Origin: Escherichia coli
GTDB taxonomy: Bacteria > Pseudomonadota > Gammaproteobacteria > Enterobacterales > Enterobacteriaceae
Assembly (NCBI RefSeq): GCF_011045215.1
Contig: NZ_CP049201.1
Reading direction: 5' to 3' (one strand)
DNA: 64,000 nt
Shown in pieces: positions 1 to 63,352 of the stretch; the first letter of the stretch is position 1, and every line of letters begins with the position of its first letter. The translations under genes and the position numbers were made by a program. A model generated the notes under the pieces. The model did no database searches. It worked only from the letters and a program-made list of their open reading frames with translations, and had not been told where the DNA came from.

Positions 1-254
1 CAACCGAAATTACCATCAGACCCACTGCATCTGCAAACTGAAGAATAACTTTTACATTCACGTTTTATTAAATAGGTCAGAAGGAAGATTTATATATCCC
101 TGTGTTTTTCATAGCAAGATGCATTATGTATTGCTCACCCCGAAGGAGATGAAGGTTTAATTACAGAAAGATTATTTTCACAGGAAGTAAACATGACTCA
201 TGTTTAATGCCTTTATATATAAAACTCATCCTCTCAATTGTCAGGAGAATTAGC

Positions 255-485
255 ATGAATACTATCTGTTCTTTAATTGTTGTGGTTACACTGTCTTTAT
301 TATCATTCAGTAGCGTCGCCAAAACGATTACTGCCGTCGGTTCAACCATTGACAGCACTGAAAAAGAAATTTCTTTACAGGCAGAAAAACAAGGGAAATC
401 ATATAAAATTCTGGGCGCGTTTTTTAAGAACAGAGTTTATATGATAGCAAAGTTAACACCAGTCAGTAAAAATGATGCTTCATAA
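255..485 (+). CDS. small secreted protein, candidate DUF1471 (YdgH/BhsA/McbA-like) family
   Basis: ORF with AGGAGA 8 nt upstream of the ATG at 255; N-terminal signal-peptide-like segment MNTICSLIVVVTLSLLSFSSVA followed by ITAVGSTIDS...EKQGKSYKIL, resembling YahO/RclB-type small periplasmic proteins. The ORF-track start at 207 looks too early. Confidence 0.4.
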   Translation: MNTICSLIVVVTLSLLSFSSVAKTITAVGSTIDSTEKEISLQAEKQGKSYKILGAFFKNRVYMIAKLTPVSKNDAS

Positions 486-789
486 GGCTCATGGTATAAT
501 TTTAAGACATGATCAAGAAGCACGTCTATTGATTCAAAATTATCATTATGATGGAAATGGAATGCCCGACAAATGACGCTACACCCACCTTCTGTACCAG
601 TCGTTCTGCTAATTCTACCGATGCTTCGGTCTGGAGTAGTAAAGTAATATTGGACACAGTTTTATTTTCTCTCTTTTTCGAGGGCTGTATATCAACAGGA
701 AGAATACATCCCTAAGCGGTTAATGCTGGCGTAATCAATAGACCAGCATTAATCACAGATGATTACCAATCAGACAGAAATGGTTAAAT

Positions 790-956
790 CGTCGAATTCA
801 TATTTAATACGTTTTCTTACGCCGCTGAACAGCTTGAAAAGGATGCATATTTTAAATATCAGTGAAATGAACAGTTTATTGCCGTTATTAATAGAAATGG
901 AGGGATAAATACGCGTATTCTACTGTTGCAACAAAAACAACGATATTGATCGGTTT
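790..956 (-). pseudogene. decayed relic: ykgO-like 3' end (790-840) fused to ykgR-like 3' fragment (840-956)
   Basis: 790-840 aligns with 19425-19477 (3' end of ykgO) at roughly 75-80% identity. 840-955 aligns with 20157-20272 at roughly 90%. Minus-strand codons 888-956 translate to KPINIVVFVATVEYAYLSLHFY*, matching the YkgR C-terminus, with no in-frame start (TGA at 957-959). Confidence 0.55.
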
Positions 957-1185
957 TCATAATGAAGTAACCTGACAGATATAAAAATGTTGATTGAGGC
1001 TAAATTCCCGGATGAAGGTTGTTGAGGGAGCCAGGTAGTTTTTTCTTTTGGGTGATCTCCATTGCTGGATAGTCCCCTTGTACAGATAAGTCCGCTCTTT
1101 CTCGCTCAAAGCGGCCCCTGGAATTGAACGCAGAGTGACTACCTGACACAATATTGCACAGTGAAGAGTCGGTCGTTGTTAACGT

Positions 1186-2070
1186 TCAGATTTTCAATGT
1201 ATCAATGACCATCCGCAGAGCGGGGGAGACGTTGCGATGAGGGTAATAGAGAAACAATCCCTCCAATCGCAGGCTGTAACGCTGCAACACTCTGATAAGC
1301 TTACCGTGTTCTAAATCATCCGCGACCAGTTCAACAGGAACATAGGCCAACCCGAGGCCCAGCCGGGCTGCTTCTGCTTCCATATAGCTGTCGGATAGGG
1401 CCCATTGCCCTTCAGGGCGATGAGTGATTTTTTTATCATCCTGATTGAGTTCCCACTGGTATACGCTGCCGTCGGCAAACTGATAGGCGATACAGGGATG
1501 CGCCTTTAAATCCGCCGGAGTTTGCGGAAAACCATAGCGACGAAAATGTTCCGGAGTCCCCACAATTGCCATCTCCATATCGGGCGTGATGCGTACCGCG
1601 ACCATACCCTGGCCGACTTCAGGCCCCAGGCGGACACCTGCATCGAATCTTTCCTCGATGATATCGACGAACCGGCTCTCATTTATCAGTTCAAGCCGGA
1701 TATCAGGATATCGCTGTTTAAATACCGCCAGCTTTGGCAGCAGGCATTTATCAATCGCATGCTGGCTGGCATTGATGCGCACCGTGCCGGAGGGCGTCTC
1801 TCGATAGTGCGCCAGCGTGGCAAGCCCAAGATCTAACATTTCAAATCCAGATGCCGTCTTCTGGTAGAGCTGCTCGCCTGCTTGCGTCAGAGACAGTTTA
1901 CGCGTGGTGCGCACCAGCAGCTGGACGCCCAGCCTTTCTTCAAGCTCGCGAACAGAACGGCTGACTCCTGACTGCGCAAGACCCAGCCGTTTAGCCGCTG
2001 CGGTAAAACTGCCTTCTTGCACCACCTGCATAAACAGGTACAGCTCGTTGTAGTTCTCCCTTTTCGCCAT
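1186..2070 (-). CDS. LysR-family transcriptional regulator
   Basis: 294 aa; N-terminal HTH (EGSFTAAAKRLGLAQSGVSRSVRELEERLGVQLLVRTTR) and LysR substrate-binding domain. Divergent from the hydrolase at 2236. Sits where K-12 has the yagP pseudogene (from memory). Confidence 0.85.
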   Translation of the reverse strand: MAKRENYNELYLFMQVVQEGSFTAAAKRLGLAQSGVSRSVRELEERLGVQLLVRTTRKLSLTQAGEQLYQKTASGFEMLDLGLATLAHYRETPSGTVRINASQHAIDKCLLPKLAVFKQRYPDIRLELINESRFVDIIEERFDAGVRLGPEVGQGMVAVRITPDMEMAIVGTPEHFRRYGFPQTPADLKAHPCIAYQFADGSVYQWELNQDDKKITHRPEGQWALSDSYMEAEAARLGLGLAYVPVELVADDLEHGKLIRVLQRYSLRLEGLFLYYPHRNVSPALRMVIDTLKI

Positions 2071-2235: not shown

Positions 2236-3393
2236 TTGTTTTTTATGGGGATTTTTATGAAAGCCTTCACCCGAACGCTAAAAACCGCGATGCCGGCCAT
2301 GCTGCTTTTCGCATCATTAAGTGGAGTCACGACAATGAGTTATGCTGATTCAACCAATCCTAATGCCCCTGTGTCCATGACAGATAAATGGGATAAAACG
2401 TTCGCCGAGAGCCAGAAAGTCGATCATCGTAAAGTATCGTTCCCGAACCGATATGGCATCACCTTAGTGGGCGATCTTTACCTGCCTAAAGACCGTGGCG
2501 ATCGCAAGCTGGCGGCGATTGCGGTCAGTGGGCCATTTGGCGCGGTGAAAGAGCAATCCAGCGGCTTGTATGCGCAGACGCTGGCGGAACGAGGGTTTGT
2601 TACCCTGGCGTTCGATCCTTCTTACACCGGGGAAAGCGGCGGCTATCCGCGAAACGTCGCCTCACCGGATATCAACACTGAAGATTTCAGCGCGGCGGTG
2701 GATTTCTTAGGGCTGCAAAAAGAGGTAGATCGCAACCGTATCGGGCTGCTCGGTATTTGTGGCTGGGGTGGCATGGCGCTGAACGACGCGGCGATGGATA
2801 CCCGCGTTAAAGCGGTTGCTACCAGCGTGATGTATGACATGAGCCGGGCGATGGGCCATGGTGTGGGGGATGGCGAAGACCGTTATTCTACCGCCGACCG
2901 TCGTGCTGTTCTGCAATATCTGAATGAACAGCGCTGGAAGGATGCGCAGAGCGGAACGTTCGCTCACGGTGGTCATGATATTAATGTCGATAGCAACGGC
3001 AAGGTCAGTGCGGGCGAGCGCATTCTGCCAGAAACGCTGCCGGCAAATCCTCATCCGGTACTGAAAGAGTTCTTTGACTACTATCGCATGCCGCGCGGCT
3101 TCCACGAACGTTCCGTTAACTCTACCGGGGCGTGGACGGCAACGATGCCGCTGTCATTTATGAATATGCCGCTGTTGAGCTACGCCAGTGAAATAACCAT
3201 TCCGACGCTGATTGTGACCGGTGAGAAAGCACATTCACGCTATTTTGCTGAAGATGCTTACAAGGCGGTTGGCAGTAAAGACAAAGAGTTGGTGGTGGTA
3301 CCAGGAGCAAATCACGTGGACCTGTACGATAACGTGGCCGGAAAAATACCTTTCGCGAAGTTCGAACAATTTTTCCAGACCAAACTGAAATAA
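2236..3393 (+). CDS. secreted alpha/beta hydrolase, dienelactone-hydrolase-like with Cys at the nucleophile elbow
   Basis: 385 aa; signal-peptide-like N-terminus (…AMPAMLLFASLSGVTTMSYA|DS); motif LGICGWGG; paralogous to the 22157-23077 product. The true start may be the internal ATG at 2257. Confidence 0.75.
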   Translation: MFFMGIFMKAFTRTLKTAMPAMLLFASLSGVTTMSYADSTNPNAPVSMTDKWDKTFAESQKVDHRKVSFPNRYGITLVGDLYLPKDRGDRKLAAIAVSGPFGAVKEQSSGLYAQTLAERGFVTLAFDPSYTGESGGYPRNVASPDINTEDFSAAVDFLGLQKEVDRNRIGLLGICGWGGMALNDAAMDTRVKAVATSVMYDMSRAMGHGVGDGEDRYSTADRRAVLQYLNEQRWKDAQSGTFAHGGHDINVDSNGKVSAGERILPETLPANPHPVLKEFFDYYRMPRGFHERSVNSTGAWTATMPLSFMNMPLLSYASEITIPTLIVTGEKAHSRYFAEDAYKAVGSKDKELVVVPGANHVDLYDNVAGKIPFAKFEQFFQTKLK

Positions 3394-3468
3394 AACCTCT
3401 CCTGAATTGATGCAAAGCCACCGGTCTATGGCCGGTGGCTTTTATCCTGATCTTTGTGAAATTTCACT

Positions 3469-4662
3469 ATGTCGACACTAAGCCAAACACCATCACCTCA
3501 TCATCAGCACGCATACTGGGGCGGTATTTTTGCCATGACCCTGTGCGTGTTTGTGCTGATTGCTTCTGAATTTATGCCCGTCAGCCTGCTCACGCCGATT
3601 GCCCGTGACCTGGGCGTGACGGAGGGGCTGGCAGGGCGGGGGATTGCTATCTCCGGTGCGCTGGCGGTTCTGACCAGCCTGACGCTTTCAACGCTAGCTG
3701 GAAAGATGAATCGTAAGTTCCTGCTGCTGGGGATGACGGTTCTGATGGCCGTATCGGGGCTTATTATTGCGCTGGCTACCAGTTATCTGATGTATATGGT
3801 CGGTCGTGCGATGATTGGTGTGGCCATTGGCGGATTCTGGTCGATGTCAGCGGCAACGGCGATTCGTCTGGTGCCGCAGCATCAGGTCACGCGTGCGCTG
3901 GCGATTTTCAACGCCGGTAATGCGCTGGCGACGGTCGTGGCCGCGCCGCTGGGAAGCTATCTGGGGGCTACGGTCGGATGGCGAGGCGCTTTCTTGTGCC
4001 TTGTGCCCATGGCGGTTGTCGCCTTTATCTGGCAGTGCATTAGTCTGCCCAGCATGGATGCGAATAAAAGCCACACGTCATGTGGCGCGGTATTCCGCTT
4101 ATTTAGCCGCCGCATGGTTGTGCTCGGCATGATAGCTTGTGGCCTGTTTTTCATGGGGCAGTTTGCGCTATTCACCTATGTGCGCCCGTTTCTGGAGTCG
4201 GTGACACGGGTTAATTCCTTAGGCTTGTCGTTGATTTTGCTGATTATCGGCGTGGCCGGTTTTATTGGCACGCTGGTTGTTTCGACATTTCTCAACAGAA
4301 AATTCTACCCCACGCTGATGGCCATACCCGGACTGATGGCCGTCATTGCCATCGGTCTGATGCTTACCGGGCATCACGTCTGGACGGTCTCGCTGCTGTT
4401 AGGACTCTGGGGCATGCTGGCCACCGCCGCGCCAACCGGATGGTGGACATGGATTGCGCGTACGTTGCCTGACAACGCCGAAGCCGGAGGCGGGCTCATG
4501 GTCGCGGTGATTCAGCTCGCCATCGCCCTTGGATCAACGGCAGGAGGCATCGTGTTTGACCGCCTTGGCTGGCAGAGTACGTTTGCCATGAGTAGTGTGC
4601 TGCTCCTTTGCGCGGGCGTACTGACCTTTGTTACCGCACGCCAGAAGGCCGGTGCGCTTTAG
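3469..4662 (+). CDS. MFS-family transporter
   Basis: 397 aa, about 12 predicted hydrophobic spans, typical MFS length and glycine-rich helices. Confidence 0.8.
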   Translation: MSTLSQTPSPHHQHAYWGGIFAMTLCVFVLIASEFMPVSLLTPIARDLGVTEGLAGRGIAISGALAVLTSLTLSTLAGKMNRKFLLLGMTVLMAVSGLIIALATSYLMYMVGRAMIGVAIGGFWSMSAATAIRLVPQHQVTRALAIFNAGNALATVVAAPLGSYLGATVGWRGAFLCLVPMAVVAFIWQCISLPSMDANKSHTSCGAVFRLFSRRMVVLGMIACGLFFMGQFALFTYVRPFLESVTRVNSLGLSLILLIIGVAGFIGTLVVSTFLNRKFYPTLMAIPGLMAVIAIGLMLTGHHVWTVSLLLGLWGMLATAAPTGWWTWIARTLPDNAEAGGGLMVAVIQLAIALGSTAGGIVFDRLGWQSTFAMSSVLLLCAGVLTFVTARQKAGAL

Positions 4663-4840
4663 TCCGGCGAGGGCGCGCGTTGCTGAATAAGTTACACAAG
4701 GCGATGAGCACCCACTATGGGTAGGGCGCTCTTTTAAACGATTTAGGTGATTTTCTAAAACGGCTACTGCAGATTTTTCTCTTAATTTATGATATTTCCC
4801 CCGGAGGTGAGAAAGCGCTTCCCACGCCCGGCCGCAAGGA

Positions 4841-5797
4841 TCAGGACGACGGGGGCAGGTATGAATCCTCCTCCTGATGGAGACGTACAGAGGCGACTTC
4901 TGCCAGCACGGAGAGGGCCAGTGTATGCGCATCCCGGGCTTTGGGAAATATCCCGACGGGTGCCCGGATTTGCGCTGTCTCCTCCCTGGACCATCCCAGC
5001 TCGTGGAGCTTTTGCAGACGTAAAGTGTGGGTTCGATAGCTGCCCAATGCGCCGAGATAAAAGGGTTTTGCTTCTCGCGCGGCCTGCAACACTGGCAGCT
5101 CCCGGTTGAGATCATGGCACAGCAAAATGACCGCCGTATCGGTATCGATCTGAGCGCTGGCTGAGGCCGGAAAAAGATCGAAGATATGGCTGTCATAGCC
5201 TGTGGCTGCTGCAAGACTCGCGGCTGCCTGCGCCTCAAGAGAACGTCCGTAAATCATCAGCCTGACGCATGGCCTGAACCCCACCTCAAAGCCATTGAGA
5301 TTCCAGCCCGTTCGGGTTTGCGTGGGCAGGCACACCAACGATTGTGCTTGCGGATCGTAGCGCAGCCCCGCCGGTTTTCTCTGTTCCAGGCGGTTCAGCA
5401 CGGCGAGCAGAGGCTGTGCCGAGCGTAGTTTATGGAGCGTCAGCGTGATCCCACCGCCGCAGGGCAGAACGATGTCAAACCACGGCGAACCTTCGCCATA
5501 GCGAATTTCGCGATCGCAGCCTGAGCCCATCATCTCCAGCGCTTCAAAAGCGGCAGCGGCCTCCACGCAGCCGCCAGAGACAAAACCGCAGTAACGACCA
5601 TCTTCGCGCACCACCATCTGCGCCCCGAGCGGGCGCGCCGCGCCGCCGCGTATCTCCACCAGCGTCACCAGCACCGCTCCTTTACCGGACATTAGCGCCT
5701 CTACGGCGAAGCGCAGAATGGTCCGGTGGTCATCGGTGAGAAACGCCTGCTCTGGCTTATGCCAGTGTTCGTCTTTATCAAAAAGCGGGTATGACAT
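4841..5797 (-). CDS. paoD: molybdenum cofactor insertion chaperone (XdhC-like) for PaoABC
   Basis: 318 aa, XdhC/CoxI-family features, immediately downstream of paoC in the same orientation. Confidence 0.85.
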   Translation of the reverse strand: MSYPLFDKDEHWHKPEQAFLTDDHRTILRFAVEALMSGKGAVLVTLVEIRGGAARPLGAQMVVREDGRYCGFVSGGCVEAAAAFEALEMMGSGCDREIRYGEGSPWFDIVLPCGGGITLTLHKLRSAQPLLAVLNRLEQRKPAGLRYDPQAQSLVCLPTQTRTGWNLNGFEVGFRPCVRLMIYGRSLEAQAAASLAAATGYDSHIFDLFPASASAQIDTDTAVILLCHDLNRELPVLQAAREAKPFYLGALGSYRTHTLRLQKLHELGWSREETAQIRAPVGIFPKARDAHTLALSVLAEVASVRLHQEEDSYLPPSS

Positions 5798-19170: not shown

Positions 19171-19404
19171 GTGAAAATGCAGGCTGCGCCGCAAAGGGAG
19201 GAGACTGAGTGGCGTGTTCAGTCTAAAAGAGAGTTGATGCCAGCATACAGGGGCGAAGCTGGTCAACAAGTCAACATTAAGATAATGGAATATTCGGAGA
19301 GAAACGTCAGGCAGTTGGCCTCAAATGAACAGGAAGAATATATCCGCAGGAAAATTAATGTTGGTGTTATAAACACACCAACATTAAACCGATCTGATTA
19401 TTAA
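19171..19404 (+). CDS. ykgL: small uncharacterised protein YkgL
   Basis: 77-codon ORF (possibly starting at the second Met) in the position expected for ykgL; no recognisable domain. Confidence 0.4.
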   Translation: MKMQAAPQREETEWRVQSKRELMPAYRGEAGQQVNIKIMEYSERNVRQLASNEQEEYIRRKINVGVINTPTLNRSDY

Positions 19405-19438
19405 TCAGACAAATATCGTTAATTCGTCGAATTTTAAA

Positions 19439-19579
19439 TCAACGTTTTTTCTTACGACCCTGAACGGCCTTAAAACGTGGATTAGATTTACAAATCACAT
19501 ATAGCCGTCCTTTTCGCTTCACAATCTGACAGTCTGGATGGCGTTCTTTTGCGGTACGAAGAGAGTTAAGAACTTTCAT
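19439..19579 (-). CDS. ykgO: ribosomal protein L36 paralog (non-zinc-ribbon type)
   Basis: Minus-strand translation [46 protein letters not shown] (46 aa); the start ATG overlaps the ykgM stop in a TGATG arrangement. Confidence 0.85.
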
Positions 19580-19871: not shown

Positions 19872-20204
19872 CGTAAAGATACATGCTCATCCGGATCATT
19901 TCAACACCCAATCCCTGTGACCCTTTGTGGATGTGGAATTTCCGCAACGGGGAACTCTGGCATTGTTAGCAGCCGTTGGCGACGCTCCCATAAACGCCTG
20001 GATGAGTGATTGATGATGGTTTTGCTGAGAGTATGGATTTTTCGAGAATGGAGGTTATCTCCACTTTACTGGCCGATGATTTATCGCAGTATGATTGATT
20101 ACCTGACAGCGTGTATTCCTCTCCCACGGATATAATAATTACTTACAAAAAGGGAGAGGATGCATATTTTAAATATCACTGAAGTGAACAGTTTATTGCC
20201 GTTA

Positions 20205-20306
20205 TTAATAGAAATGGAGAAATAAATAGGCGTATTCTACAATTGCGACAAAAACAACGATATTAATCAGTTTATGACTGATTTGTTGTACTTTATTCTC
20301 TTTCAT
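20205..20306 (-). CDS. ykgR: small hydrophobic protein YkgR
   Basis: Minus-strand ORF translates exactly to MKENKVQQISHKLINIVVFVAIVEYAYLFLHFY (33 aa), which I recognise as YkgR. Confidence 0.7.
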   Translation of the reverse strand: MKENKVQQISHKLINIVVFVAIVEYAYLFLHFY

Positions 20307-34830: not shown

Positions 34831-35067
34831 TTATTTATACAATACTGCTGTTGCGGTTGAATTATTATCAATTCGCATCGATGTGACTTTCCAGGATGAA
34901 GCATTATATTTTCTGGCTATATCAGCAATGGCATCCTCCAGAACTGTCGGTGATGCTGATACTGACGAGACGCTGATATGTTTCAGAATTATTTTATCAT
35001 CTGCATTGGTGGAAAATGCCATAACGCCAGATAATAGTGTTGCAAATAAAACGGATTTTTTAAACAT
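34831..35067 (-). CDS. rclB: small periplasmic DUF1471 protein
   Basis: 78 aa from MFKKSVLFATLLSGVMAFSTNA…; signal peptide plus DUF1471-like C-terminus. Confidence 0.75.
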   Translation of the reverse strand: MFKKSVLFATLLSGVMAFSTNADDKIILKHISVSSVSASPTVLEDAIADIARKYNASSWKVTSMRIDNNSTATAVLYK

Positions 35068-63076: not shown

Positions 63077-63352
63077 ATGAAAATAATCTCTAAAATGTTA
63101 GTCGGTGCGTTAGCGTTTGCCGTTACCAATGTCTATGCCGCTGAATTGATGACTAAAGCGGAATTTGAAAAAGTCGAATCGCAATATGAAAAAATAGGTG
63201 ATATTTCAACCAGCAATGAAATGTCGACCGCAGATGCGAAAGAGGATTTGATCAAAAAAGCGGATGAAAAAGGGGCTGATGTGTTGGTACTGACCTCCGG
63301 TCAAACTGACAATAAGATCCACGGCACGGCAAATATTTATAAGAAGAAGTAA
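63077..63352 (+). CDS. yahO: periplasmic DUF1471 protein
   Basis: 91 aa; signal peptide [21 protein letters not shown] and a DUF1471 C-terminus (…[32 protein letters not shown]). Confidence 0.8.

Follow-up and report, generated by a model that had tools for sequence, protein, structure and literature searches.

The question raised by the 64,000-nt stretch of Escherichia coli DNA analysed here (the window) is whether a short ORF close to its start is a gene at all and, if so, to which family its product belongs and in which genetic setting it is found. The sequence-only reading had placed three ORFs, at 255-485, 34831-35067 and 63077-63352, side by side as small periplasmic proteins with a signal peptide and a DUF1471-like domain, and had called the first a possibly new or decaying member of the family. 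All three ORFs exist (Table 1), the latter two being rclB and yahO, whose products pass PF07338 as well as their own NCBIfam models; the coordinates were right, and the minus strand of rclB had gone unstated. We consider it probable that ORF 255-485 is a genuine accessory gene, third in a LysR-SDR cassette, and that it encodes a Sec-exported minimal DUF1471 protein of a short subfamily.

Table 1. Features of the locus and of related cassettes; positions refer to the window unless a contig (L) is named
Feature	Position	Strand	Basis or remarks
SDR oxidoreductase gene, 3' end (last 13 codons and stop, cut by window start)	1..41	+	annotation from O145 RM9872 and Sakai
Shine-Dalgarno sequence (SD) AGGAG	243..247	+	7 nt 5' of ATG 255
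Small-protein gene, ECs_0307 orthologue	255..485	+	ORF and translation; 76-aa precursor
Predicted Sec signal peptide, residues 1-22	255..320	+	hydrophobic core, -3/-1 rule, family alignment
Mature domain, 54 aa, pI about 9.6	321..482	+	predicted beta 24-29, alpha 32-45, beta 49-57, beta 61-68, 9-residue tail
Degenerate, internally deleted second copy of ykgL'/ykgO'...ykgR'	691..956	-	PGAP: 888-956 partial ykgR
rclB (rclABC operon), canonical DUF1471, 78 aa	34831..35067	-	peri_RclB 1.8e-45; PF07338 45.7 bits
yahO, canonical DUF1471, 91 aa	63077..63352	+	NF007400 1.3e-51; PF07338 49.2 bits
Mobile cassettes: LysR, 202-240-aa SDR, short DUF1471, usually Atu4866	L010-L014 about 3035-5582; L018 1152-3579; L024 1032-3581; L025 1319-3210

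A conserved protein-coding gene under purifying selection

The ORF runs from ATG 255 to TAA 483-485, and its 76-aa product reads MNTICSLIVVVTLSLLSFSSVA followed by KTITAVGSTIDSTEKEISLQAEKQGKSYKILGAFFKNRVYMIAKLTPVSKNDAS, the junction of the two parts being the predicted cleavage site. In most genomes PGAP starts the gene at ATG 207, which yields 92 aa. We rejected this start, because RM9088 has ATA and the cryptic Escherichia clade ATT at its position, and because in-frame stops lie between it and ATG 255 in both the clade and the mobile forms of the gene. ATG 255 and its SD are kept in the E. coli, cryptic-clade and mobile-cassette versions, with the exception of O157:H7, where the start at this position is GTG and the SD reads GGGAA, not AGGAG (EDL933, L004 3028-3080), so that translation may be weaker or shifted there. 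The conservation of ATG 255 together with its SD, and the lack of conservation of ATG 207, indicates that the 76-aa form is the real one.

The ORF shares 88.7% nucleotide identity with the allele of cryptic-clade Escherichia, and 14.5 of the 26 substitutions are synonymous (dS 0.35, dN/dS 0.18-0.22), a pattern that departs from neutrality (binomial test, P about 6e-4). The 11 amino-acid changes comprise six in the signal peptide and five in the mature domain, one of the latter in its tail, and the residues conserved in the short subfamily (A43, G47, Y50, I52, N59 and A65) are all retained. The ORF is thus a conserved protein-coding gene under purifying selection. A chance ORF in AT-rich intergenic DNA might be suspected from its shortness, its AT-richness, its annotation as hypothetical and the absence of a precomputed Pfam domain in any orthologue, but the synonymous bias, the conserved SD and start, a domain modelled confidently by AlphaFold2 (AF2), and homologues that keep both length and cassette position at 42-58% identity leave almost no credence for this explanation, which is effectively refuted by the full-length homologues, the cassette conservation and the substitution pattern.

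The GC content is 34.6% in the ORF, 37% over window 1-1185 and 49.7% over the whole window, the low value of the 1-1185 segment being typical of horizontally acquired DNA that is maybe H-NS-silenced. An Rfam scan of window 1-1300 returned nothing credible, and a scan for promoters and terminators yielded six promoter-like sites, where 4.2 are expected, and detected no terminator. No expression, mutant or other experimental data were found in the literature on WP_001301751, ECs0307 and Atu4866.

Relationship to the DUF1471 family

The gathering score of PF07338 is 27 bits, an operational cutoff, a miss of which does not disprove homology. The ORF product alone scores 14.5 bits with an E of 0.038, its residues 24-55 aligning with positions 8-40 of the 55 in the profile, compared with 45.7 bits for RclB and 49.2 for YahO, and is therefore the most divergent of the three proteins, as had been supposed. 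The NCBIfam models of BhsA and YhcN gave 23.2 bits (cutoff 90, E 7.8e-5) and 11.5 bits (cutoff 125), respectively, and those of RclB and YahO did not match the product at all; judged by its sequence, it is an orthologue of none of these four named paralogues. Nor was a precomputed Pfam domain found in any of the roughly 90 orthologue clusters, all of them from Escherichia or Shigella. The sequence-only reading had made membership hang on a DUF1471 profile match, and the direct search came close to yielding none (14.5 against 27 bits), but family profiles do match.

When 1.84 billion cluster representatives were searched exhaustively by HMMER, the orthologue profile retrieved 59 proteins at E<=1e-3, almost all of them signal-peptide proteins of 68-73 aa matched over their full length, and the ORF-family profile reached proteins of 69-71 aa at E 1e-11 to 3e-13, likewise over the full length. 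PF07338 was matched at E<=0.01 by 36 of the 43 aligned members of this short subfamily, and its gathering score was passed by five of the ten nearest relatives scanned (32-38 bits); the names given by NCBI to the Enterobacter members are DUF1471 or YdgH/BhsA/McbA-like domain-containing protein. When the short-subfamily profile (ORF first) was compared by hhalign with a profile of YahO and RclB orthologues, the probability was 96.7% and E was 3.6e-10 over 48 columns that pair ORF residues 24-71 with YahO residues 42-91, that is, the whole mature domain. The orthologue-only profile gave a weak match to YahO/RclB (E 0.064, helix only), a result of its shallowness (Neff 1.2). Among 763 six-frame segments of the window, the short-subfamily HMM found as its only other matches RclB (E 0.0026) and YahO (E 0.0064).

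The Enterobacter DUF1471 proteins of ~69 aa (WP_248243945.1, P0094 cluster) are homologous to the ORF product over the full length (E about 3e-13, 45-49% identity) and share with it the predicted signal peptide ...SF..[FV]A, the motif S/T-[VI]-[ST]-A, the helix A-E-x-x-I-x-x-x-A-x-x-x-G, and Y-K-I followed by N-x-V-[YH]-M-x-A-x-L. They pass the Pfam cutoff (32-38 bits), whereas the ORF product does not; the latter has I-A for T-A in the last strand and ends in an additional tail of 9 residues, and its gene belongs to the LysR-SDR cassette, in contrast to the Enterobacter gene in the lpxH-purE interval of the core chromosome. The nearest relative outside the Escherichia orthologues is a 73-aa hypothetical protein of Enterobacterales (P0147/P0090 cluster, 55-58% identity), likewise invisible to Pfam, whose gene occupies the same place after a 240-aa SDR (90% identical) and a LysR (85%). 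In that version an Atu4866 gene follows and the whole is found at several chromosomal sites as mobile cargo, whereas the window has no Atu4866 gene.

The pattern of the short subfamily comprises a signal peptide, [ST]-[VI]-[ST]-A, x-S-T-[LI]-D-x-A-E-x-x-I-x-x-x-A-x-x-x-G-x-x-Y-K-I and N-x-V-[YH]-M-[TI]-A-x-L, where [YH]-M-[TI]-A-x-L replaces the canonical H-G-T-A-x-x-Y-K end; the ORF product ends in Y-M-I-A-K-L-T-P-V-S-K-N-D-A-S. YahO and RclB resemble it in combining a signal peptide, predicted in the case of the ORF product, with one DUF1471 domain, and the cores align end to end, with the YahO/RclB invariants N79 and A85 matched by N59 and A65 of the ORF product and T84, Y88 and K89 unmatched. 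They differ from it in an extra N-terminal segment (the mature YahO has about 70 aa against 54), in the G-T-A-x-x-Y-K end and in being E. coli core genes, whereas the ORF occurs in 8% of complete genomes. The canonical precursor has ~90 aa including the N-terminal variable segment; that of the ORF has 76 aa and lacks the segment, so that its domain spans about 47-54 aa, not the about 60 aa that had been proposed. Because both the canonical end motif and the N-terminal segment are lacking, the product was filed under a divergent short subfamily and not as a canonical member. Orthologues and short subfamily come from named sources in Escherichia, Shigella, Enterobacter, Klebsiella, Atlantibacter and Erwinia, and the ORF family thus shares the restriction of DUF1471 to Enterobacterales.

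The product starts with MNTICSLIVVVTLSLLSFSSVA followed by KT, has a hydrophobic core with a Kyte-Doolittle mean of 2.73 over 11 residues and carries before the predicted cleavage site an S-V-A that fits the heuristic -3/-1 rule; in an alignment of the short subfamily, its N-terminus falls together with the signal peptides of the other members. The n-region, MNTICS, has no Lys or Arg, whereas most relatives begin with MK. AF2 with the 43-sequence alignment gave a mean pLDDT of 84, and 92-97 over the domain, with a low-confidence helix at residues 3-19 (the signal peptide) set apart from it; a model from the shallow orthologue alignment (pLDDT 59.6) was discarded. A Foldseek search of the PDB found nothing at E<=0.001 (YdgH, 4evu, ranked 16th), and a PDB sequence search with the orthologue and subfamily profiles found nothing useful, the best match being SrfN (2jna, E 0.39). 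The mixed alpha+beta fold is common to SrfN, YahO, the YdgH domains and RcsF (PMC4092069), and the ORF product is predicted with high confidence to have this DUF1471 fold. The periplasmic domain of RcsF, although a fold neighbour of DUF1471, differs in that the ORF product has no lipobox, no redox cysteines and no sequence relationship to it. The proposed DUF1471-like domain, placed after a predicted signal peptide, is supported by the intermediates, the profile-profile comparison and the predicted fold.

Taken together, the comparisons place the product in the DUF1471 superfamily, as a divergent protein within a short subfamily whose precursors have about 69-76 aa. A genuine small exported protein without homology to DUF1471, whose beta-alpha-beta-beta arrangement reflects convergence on a very common mini-fold, would be compatible with the sub-threshold direct Pfam match, with the identity of about 10% to YahO over the domain and with an end in which, out of G-T-A-x-x-Y-K, only the alanine aligns with its YahO counterpart. 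We regard such convergence as very unlikely, given the continuous chain of full-length homologues (E 1e-11 to 1e-13) in which 69-aa links pass PF07338, the profile-profile E of 3.6e-10 over the entire domain, and the shared architecture, Enterobacterales-only range and reciprocal HMM matches to RclB and YahO.

A six-frame HMM scan of the window with canonical and short-subfamily profiles found DUF1471 ORFs at 255-485, rclB and yahO only. With 10-11 paralogues per genome, about 0.13-0.14 DUF1471 genes are expected per 64 kb, and the probability of three or more is about 4e-4. To judge by the degree of sequence divergence, the three did not arise by recent duplication from one another.

The LysR-SDR cassette and its erosion beside thrW

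The translation of window 1-41, ending in TEITIRPTASAN before the stop, matches the C-terminus of the SDR, for which no specific family assignment was found. In related genomes thrW is followed by yagP (LysR, minus strand), in some cases after remnants of islands or prophages, then by the SDR gene (240 aa) and the ORF, and finally by a ykgR relic and another LysR gene. Within the cassette yagP is divergent from the SDR gene, and the small gene comes third, on the same strand as the SDR gene and after a gap of 213 nt in the window; in one version of the cassette it starts 50 nt after the SDR gene.

LysR, SDR and small gene keep their order in E. coli and the cryptic clade, and the same arrangement is found in four other versions (P0147, P0093, P0091 and P0105), the small proteins of which are 42-58% identical to the ORF product. 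In E. coli, Klebsiella and Atlantibacter the P0147 version is carried as cargo by prophages and integrative islands, and the other three come from metagenome-derived (Logan/ENA) contigs. Three of the four add an 81-aa Atu4866-domain gene; no relic of such a gene was found downstream of the ORF in the window. Identity across versions (L001, L008, L010, L018) is 83-90% for the SDR, 79-85% for the LysR and 43-55% for the small protein, a far lower value that marks the latter as a fast-evolving member of a conserved cassette. Mobile cassettes occur at several unrelated Enterobacterales sites, near phage tail-fibre genes, umuDC, Abi genes, CbtA/CbeA islands and AlpA/TraR elements. Short-subfamily genes are also found elsewhere, between lpxH and purE in Enterobacter and, in another case, after a SnoaL-like gene.

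Of 5,426 complete E. coli genomes, 435 (8%) carry the gene, mainly O157:H7 and O145:H28, and PGAP labels it hypothetical protein in all of them. The Sakai (O157:H7) orthologue is ECs_0307, and the deposited accessions include WP_001301751.1; the member that had been called new is therefore new as to annotation only, having already been deposited as hypothetical in hundreds of genomes. K-12 lacks the gene, and presumably retains only the yagP pseudogene of the cassette; an identification of the ORF with K-12 ykgL was rejected, the sequence being unrelated and K-12 being devoid of the ORF. Window 1-1200 has no identical counterpart among the complete RefSeq E. coli genomes, the best match being O145:H28 with 98.3% identity over the 1,200 nt and 99.4% over the ORF region, so that the source strain represents a related lineage outside this collection, probably one of phylogroup E type.

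Intact forms of 76 or 92 aa occur in thousands of contigs and truncated forms in tens, that is, in a few percent of occurrences. A 62-aa product results where the A5 or T6 run of the ORF carries a frameshift, although some of the variants, in draft or Logan assemblies, may reflect errors of sequencing and not real alleles. The homopolymer runs at window 355-440 (ctgAAAAAg, gcagAAAAAc and gcgTTTTTTaag) are the frameshift sites of the 62-aa variants, and their shifted frame is that of the ORF at 277-444, with the end ...FLRTEFI. The allele of strain 18KM2445 carries two 1-nt deletions and a stop, and that of strain A27 is truncated by IS629. Strains M114 and 18KM2445 have a truncated SDR gene, and in APEC37 both LysR and SDR genes are truncated while the orthologue of the ORF is intact, which counts against a strict dependence of the small gene on the cassette. 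The whole cassette erodes beside thrW. As regards the small gene itself, the suggestion of a decaying member holds for minority alleles (frameshifts, one internal stop, one IS629 truncation), but most alleles are intact and dN/dS is about 0.2; the sequence-only reading had also named disruption in most related genomes as a sign against it, and among carriers the ORF is usually intact, with a few percent disrupted by contig counts.

These alleles bear on the main competitor of our reading, in which the ORF would be a dead or dying remnant of an imported cassette beside the thrW integration hotspot, making little or no protein. Decay of this kind would agree with a GC content of 34.6% against 49.7% for the window, with a small protein that diverges far faster (43-55%) than SDR (83-90%) and LysR (79-85%), with the traceless absence of the Atu4866 partner of the mobile versions, with the loss of the basic n-region of the signal peptide, with the GTG start and weak SD (GGGAA) of O157:H7, the largest carrier lineage, and with the alleles just described, namely the frameshifted 62-aa forms, one with two frameshifts and a stop and one truncated by IS629; the gene is also missing from K-12 and from 92% of complete genomes. 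It is at odds with a dN/dS of about 0.2 over a dS of about 0.35, with the concentration of six of the 11 changes in the signal peptide, with intact 76/92-aa forms in thousands of contigs as opposed to tens of truncated ones, and with the retention across lineages of start and SD and of A43, G47, Y50, I52, N59 and A65. We consider a remnant unlikely and retain the reading of a genuine accessory gene.

Downstream, the ykgO/ykgR relic that had been noticed next to the ORF is real, window 840-956 matching the 3' part of the true ykgR (20157-20273) with 91% identity over 117 nt and window 691-840 matching 19325-19475, the 3' end of ykgL and the last codons of ykgO, with 73.5% over 155 nt. The two copies flank a 19.3-kb block that holds a LysR gene, an alpha/beta hydrolase gene, an MFS gene, paoDCBA, yagU, ykgJ, the ecp operon, ykgL, ykgO and ykgM. 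On a contig of cryptic-clade Escherichia (L008) the ORF is directly followed by an intact ykgR, without the block. This arrangement of sequences suggests either a deletion by recombination between repeats or an old insertion. In O145 RM9872 the annotation lists both paoB and ykgL as pseudogenes with frameshifts (L003 8004-8959 and 19184-19409); the ykgL ORF is open in the window (19171-19404, 77 aa from GTG 19171).

Possible role and significance

If our reading of a genuine accessory gene is correct, the product would be exported through the Sec pathway and cleaved after Ala22, which would leave in the periplasm a basic protein of about 54 aa with a minimal beta-alpha-beta-beta DUF1471 core. 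The gene may be expressed together with the SDR gene or under the same LysR control, and the small protein could then be the envelope-side part of a small stress or detoxification module. By analogy with what has been proposed for BhsA, YjfN and RclB, it would have no enzymatic activity and would alter the properties of the envelope or bind a partner located there. Of these three, BhsA has an effect on copper permeability, YjfN is an activator of DegP, and RclB is encoded after the reductase RclA, with the regulator gene divergent (PMC12096828, PMC4092069). An envelope role for the small protein is a family-level assignment, since the mechanism is unknown even for the DUF1471 proteins that have been studied.

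The small gene and rclB are alike in lying 3' of a gene for a cytoplasmic oxidoreductase that has a divergent regulator, and the LysR-SDR-small gene layout parallels rclR-rclA-rclB of the same window. Whether LysR(YagP)-SDR-short DUF1471(-Atu4866) forms a mobile, self-regulated envelope-stress or detoxification module, and thus a second, independent instance of the rclR-rclA-rclB type, is a more speculative matter, and we regard this extension as rather doubtful. Should it hold, the 47-residue domain would offer a tractable minimal system for DUF1471 function; as the biochemical role of DUF1471 is still unknown, such a short form, whose genetic partner is conserved, could serve as a convenient handle for experiments.

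ORF 255-485 is an ordinary accessory gene, an unannotated member of a known family and not a new kind of system; the practical value of the finding is modest, and nothing points to a new mechanism. In hundreds of E. coli genomes, O157:H7 and O145:H28 included, where the gene now stands as a hypothetical protein with its start placed too far upstream, it could be re-annotated as encoding a 76-aa short DUF1471-family periplasmic protein. For the family, the results indicate that PF07338 misses a rapidly evolving branch of DUF1471, and that this short branch recurs in linkage with a LysR-SDR pair on mobile DNA.
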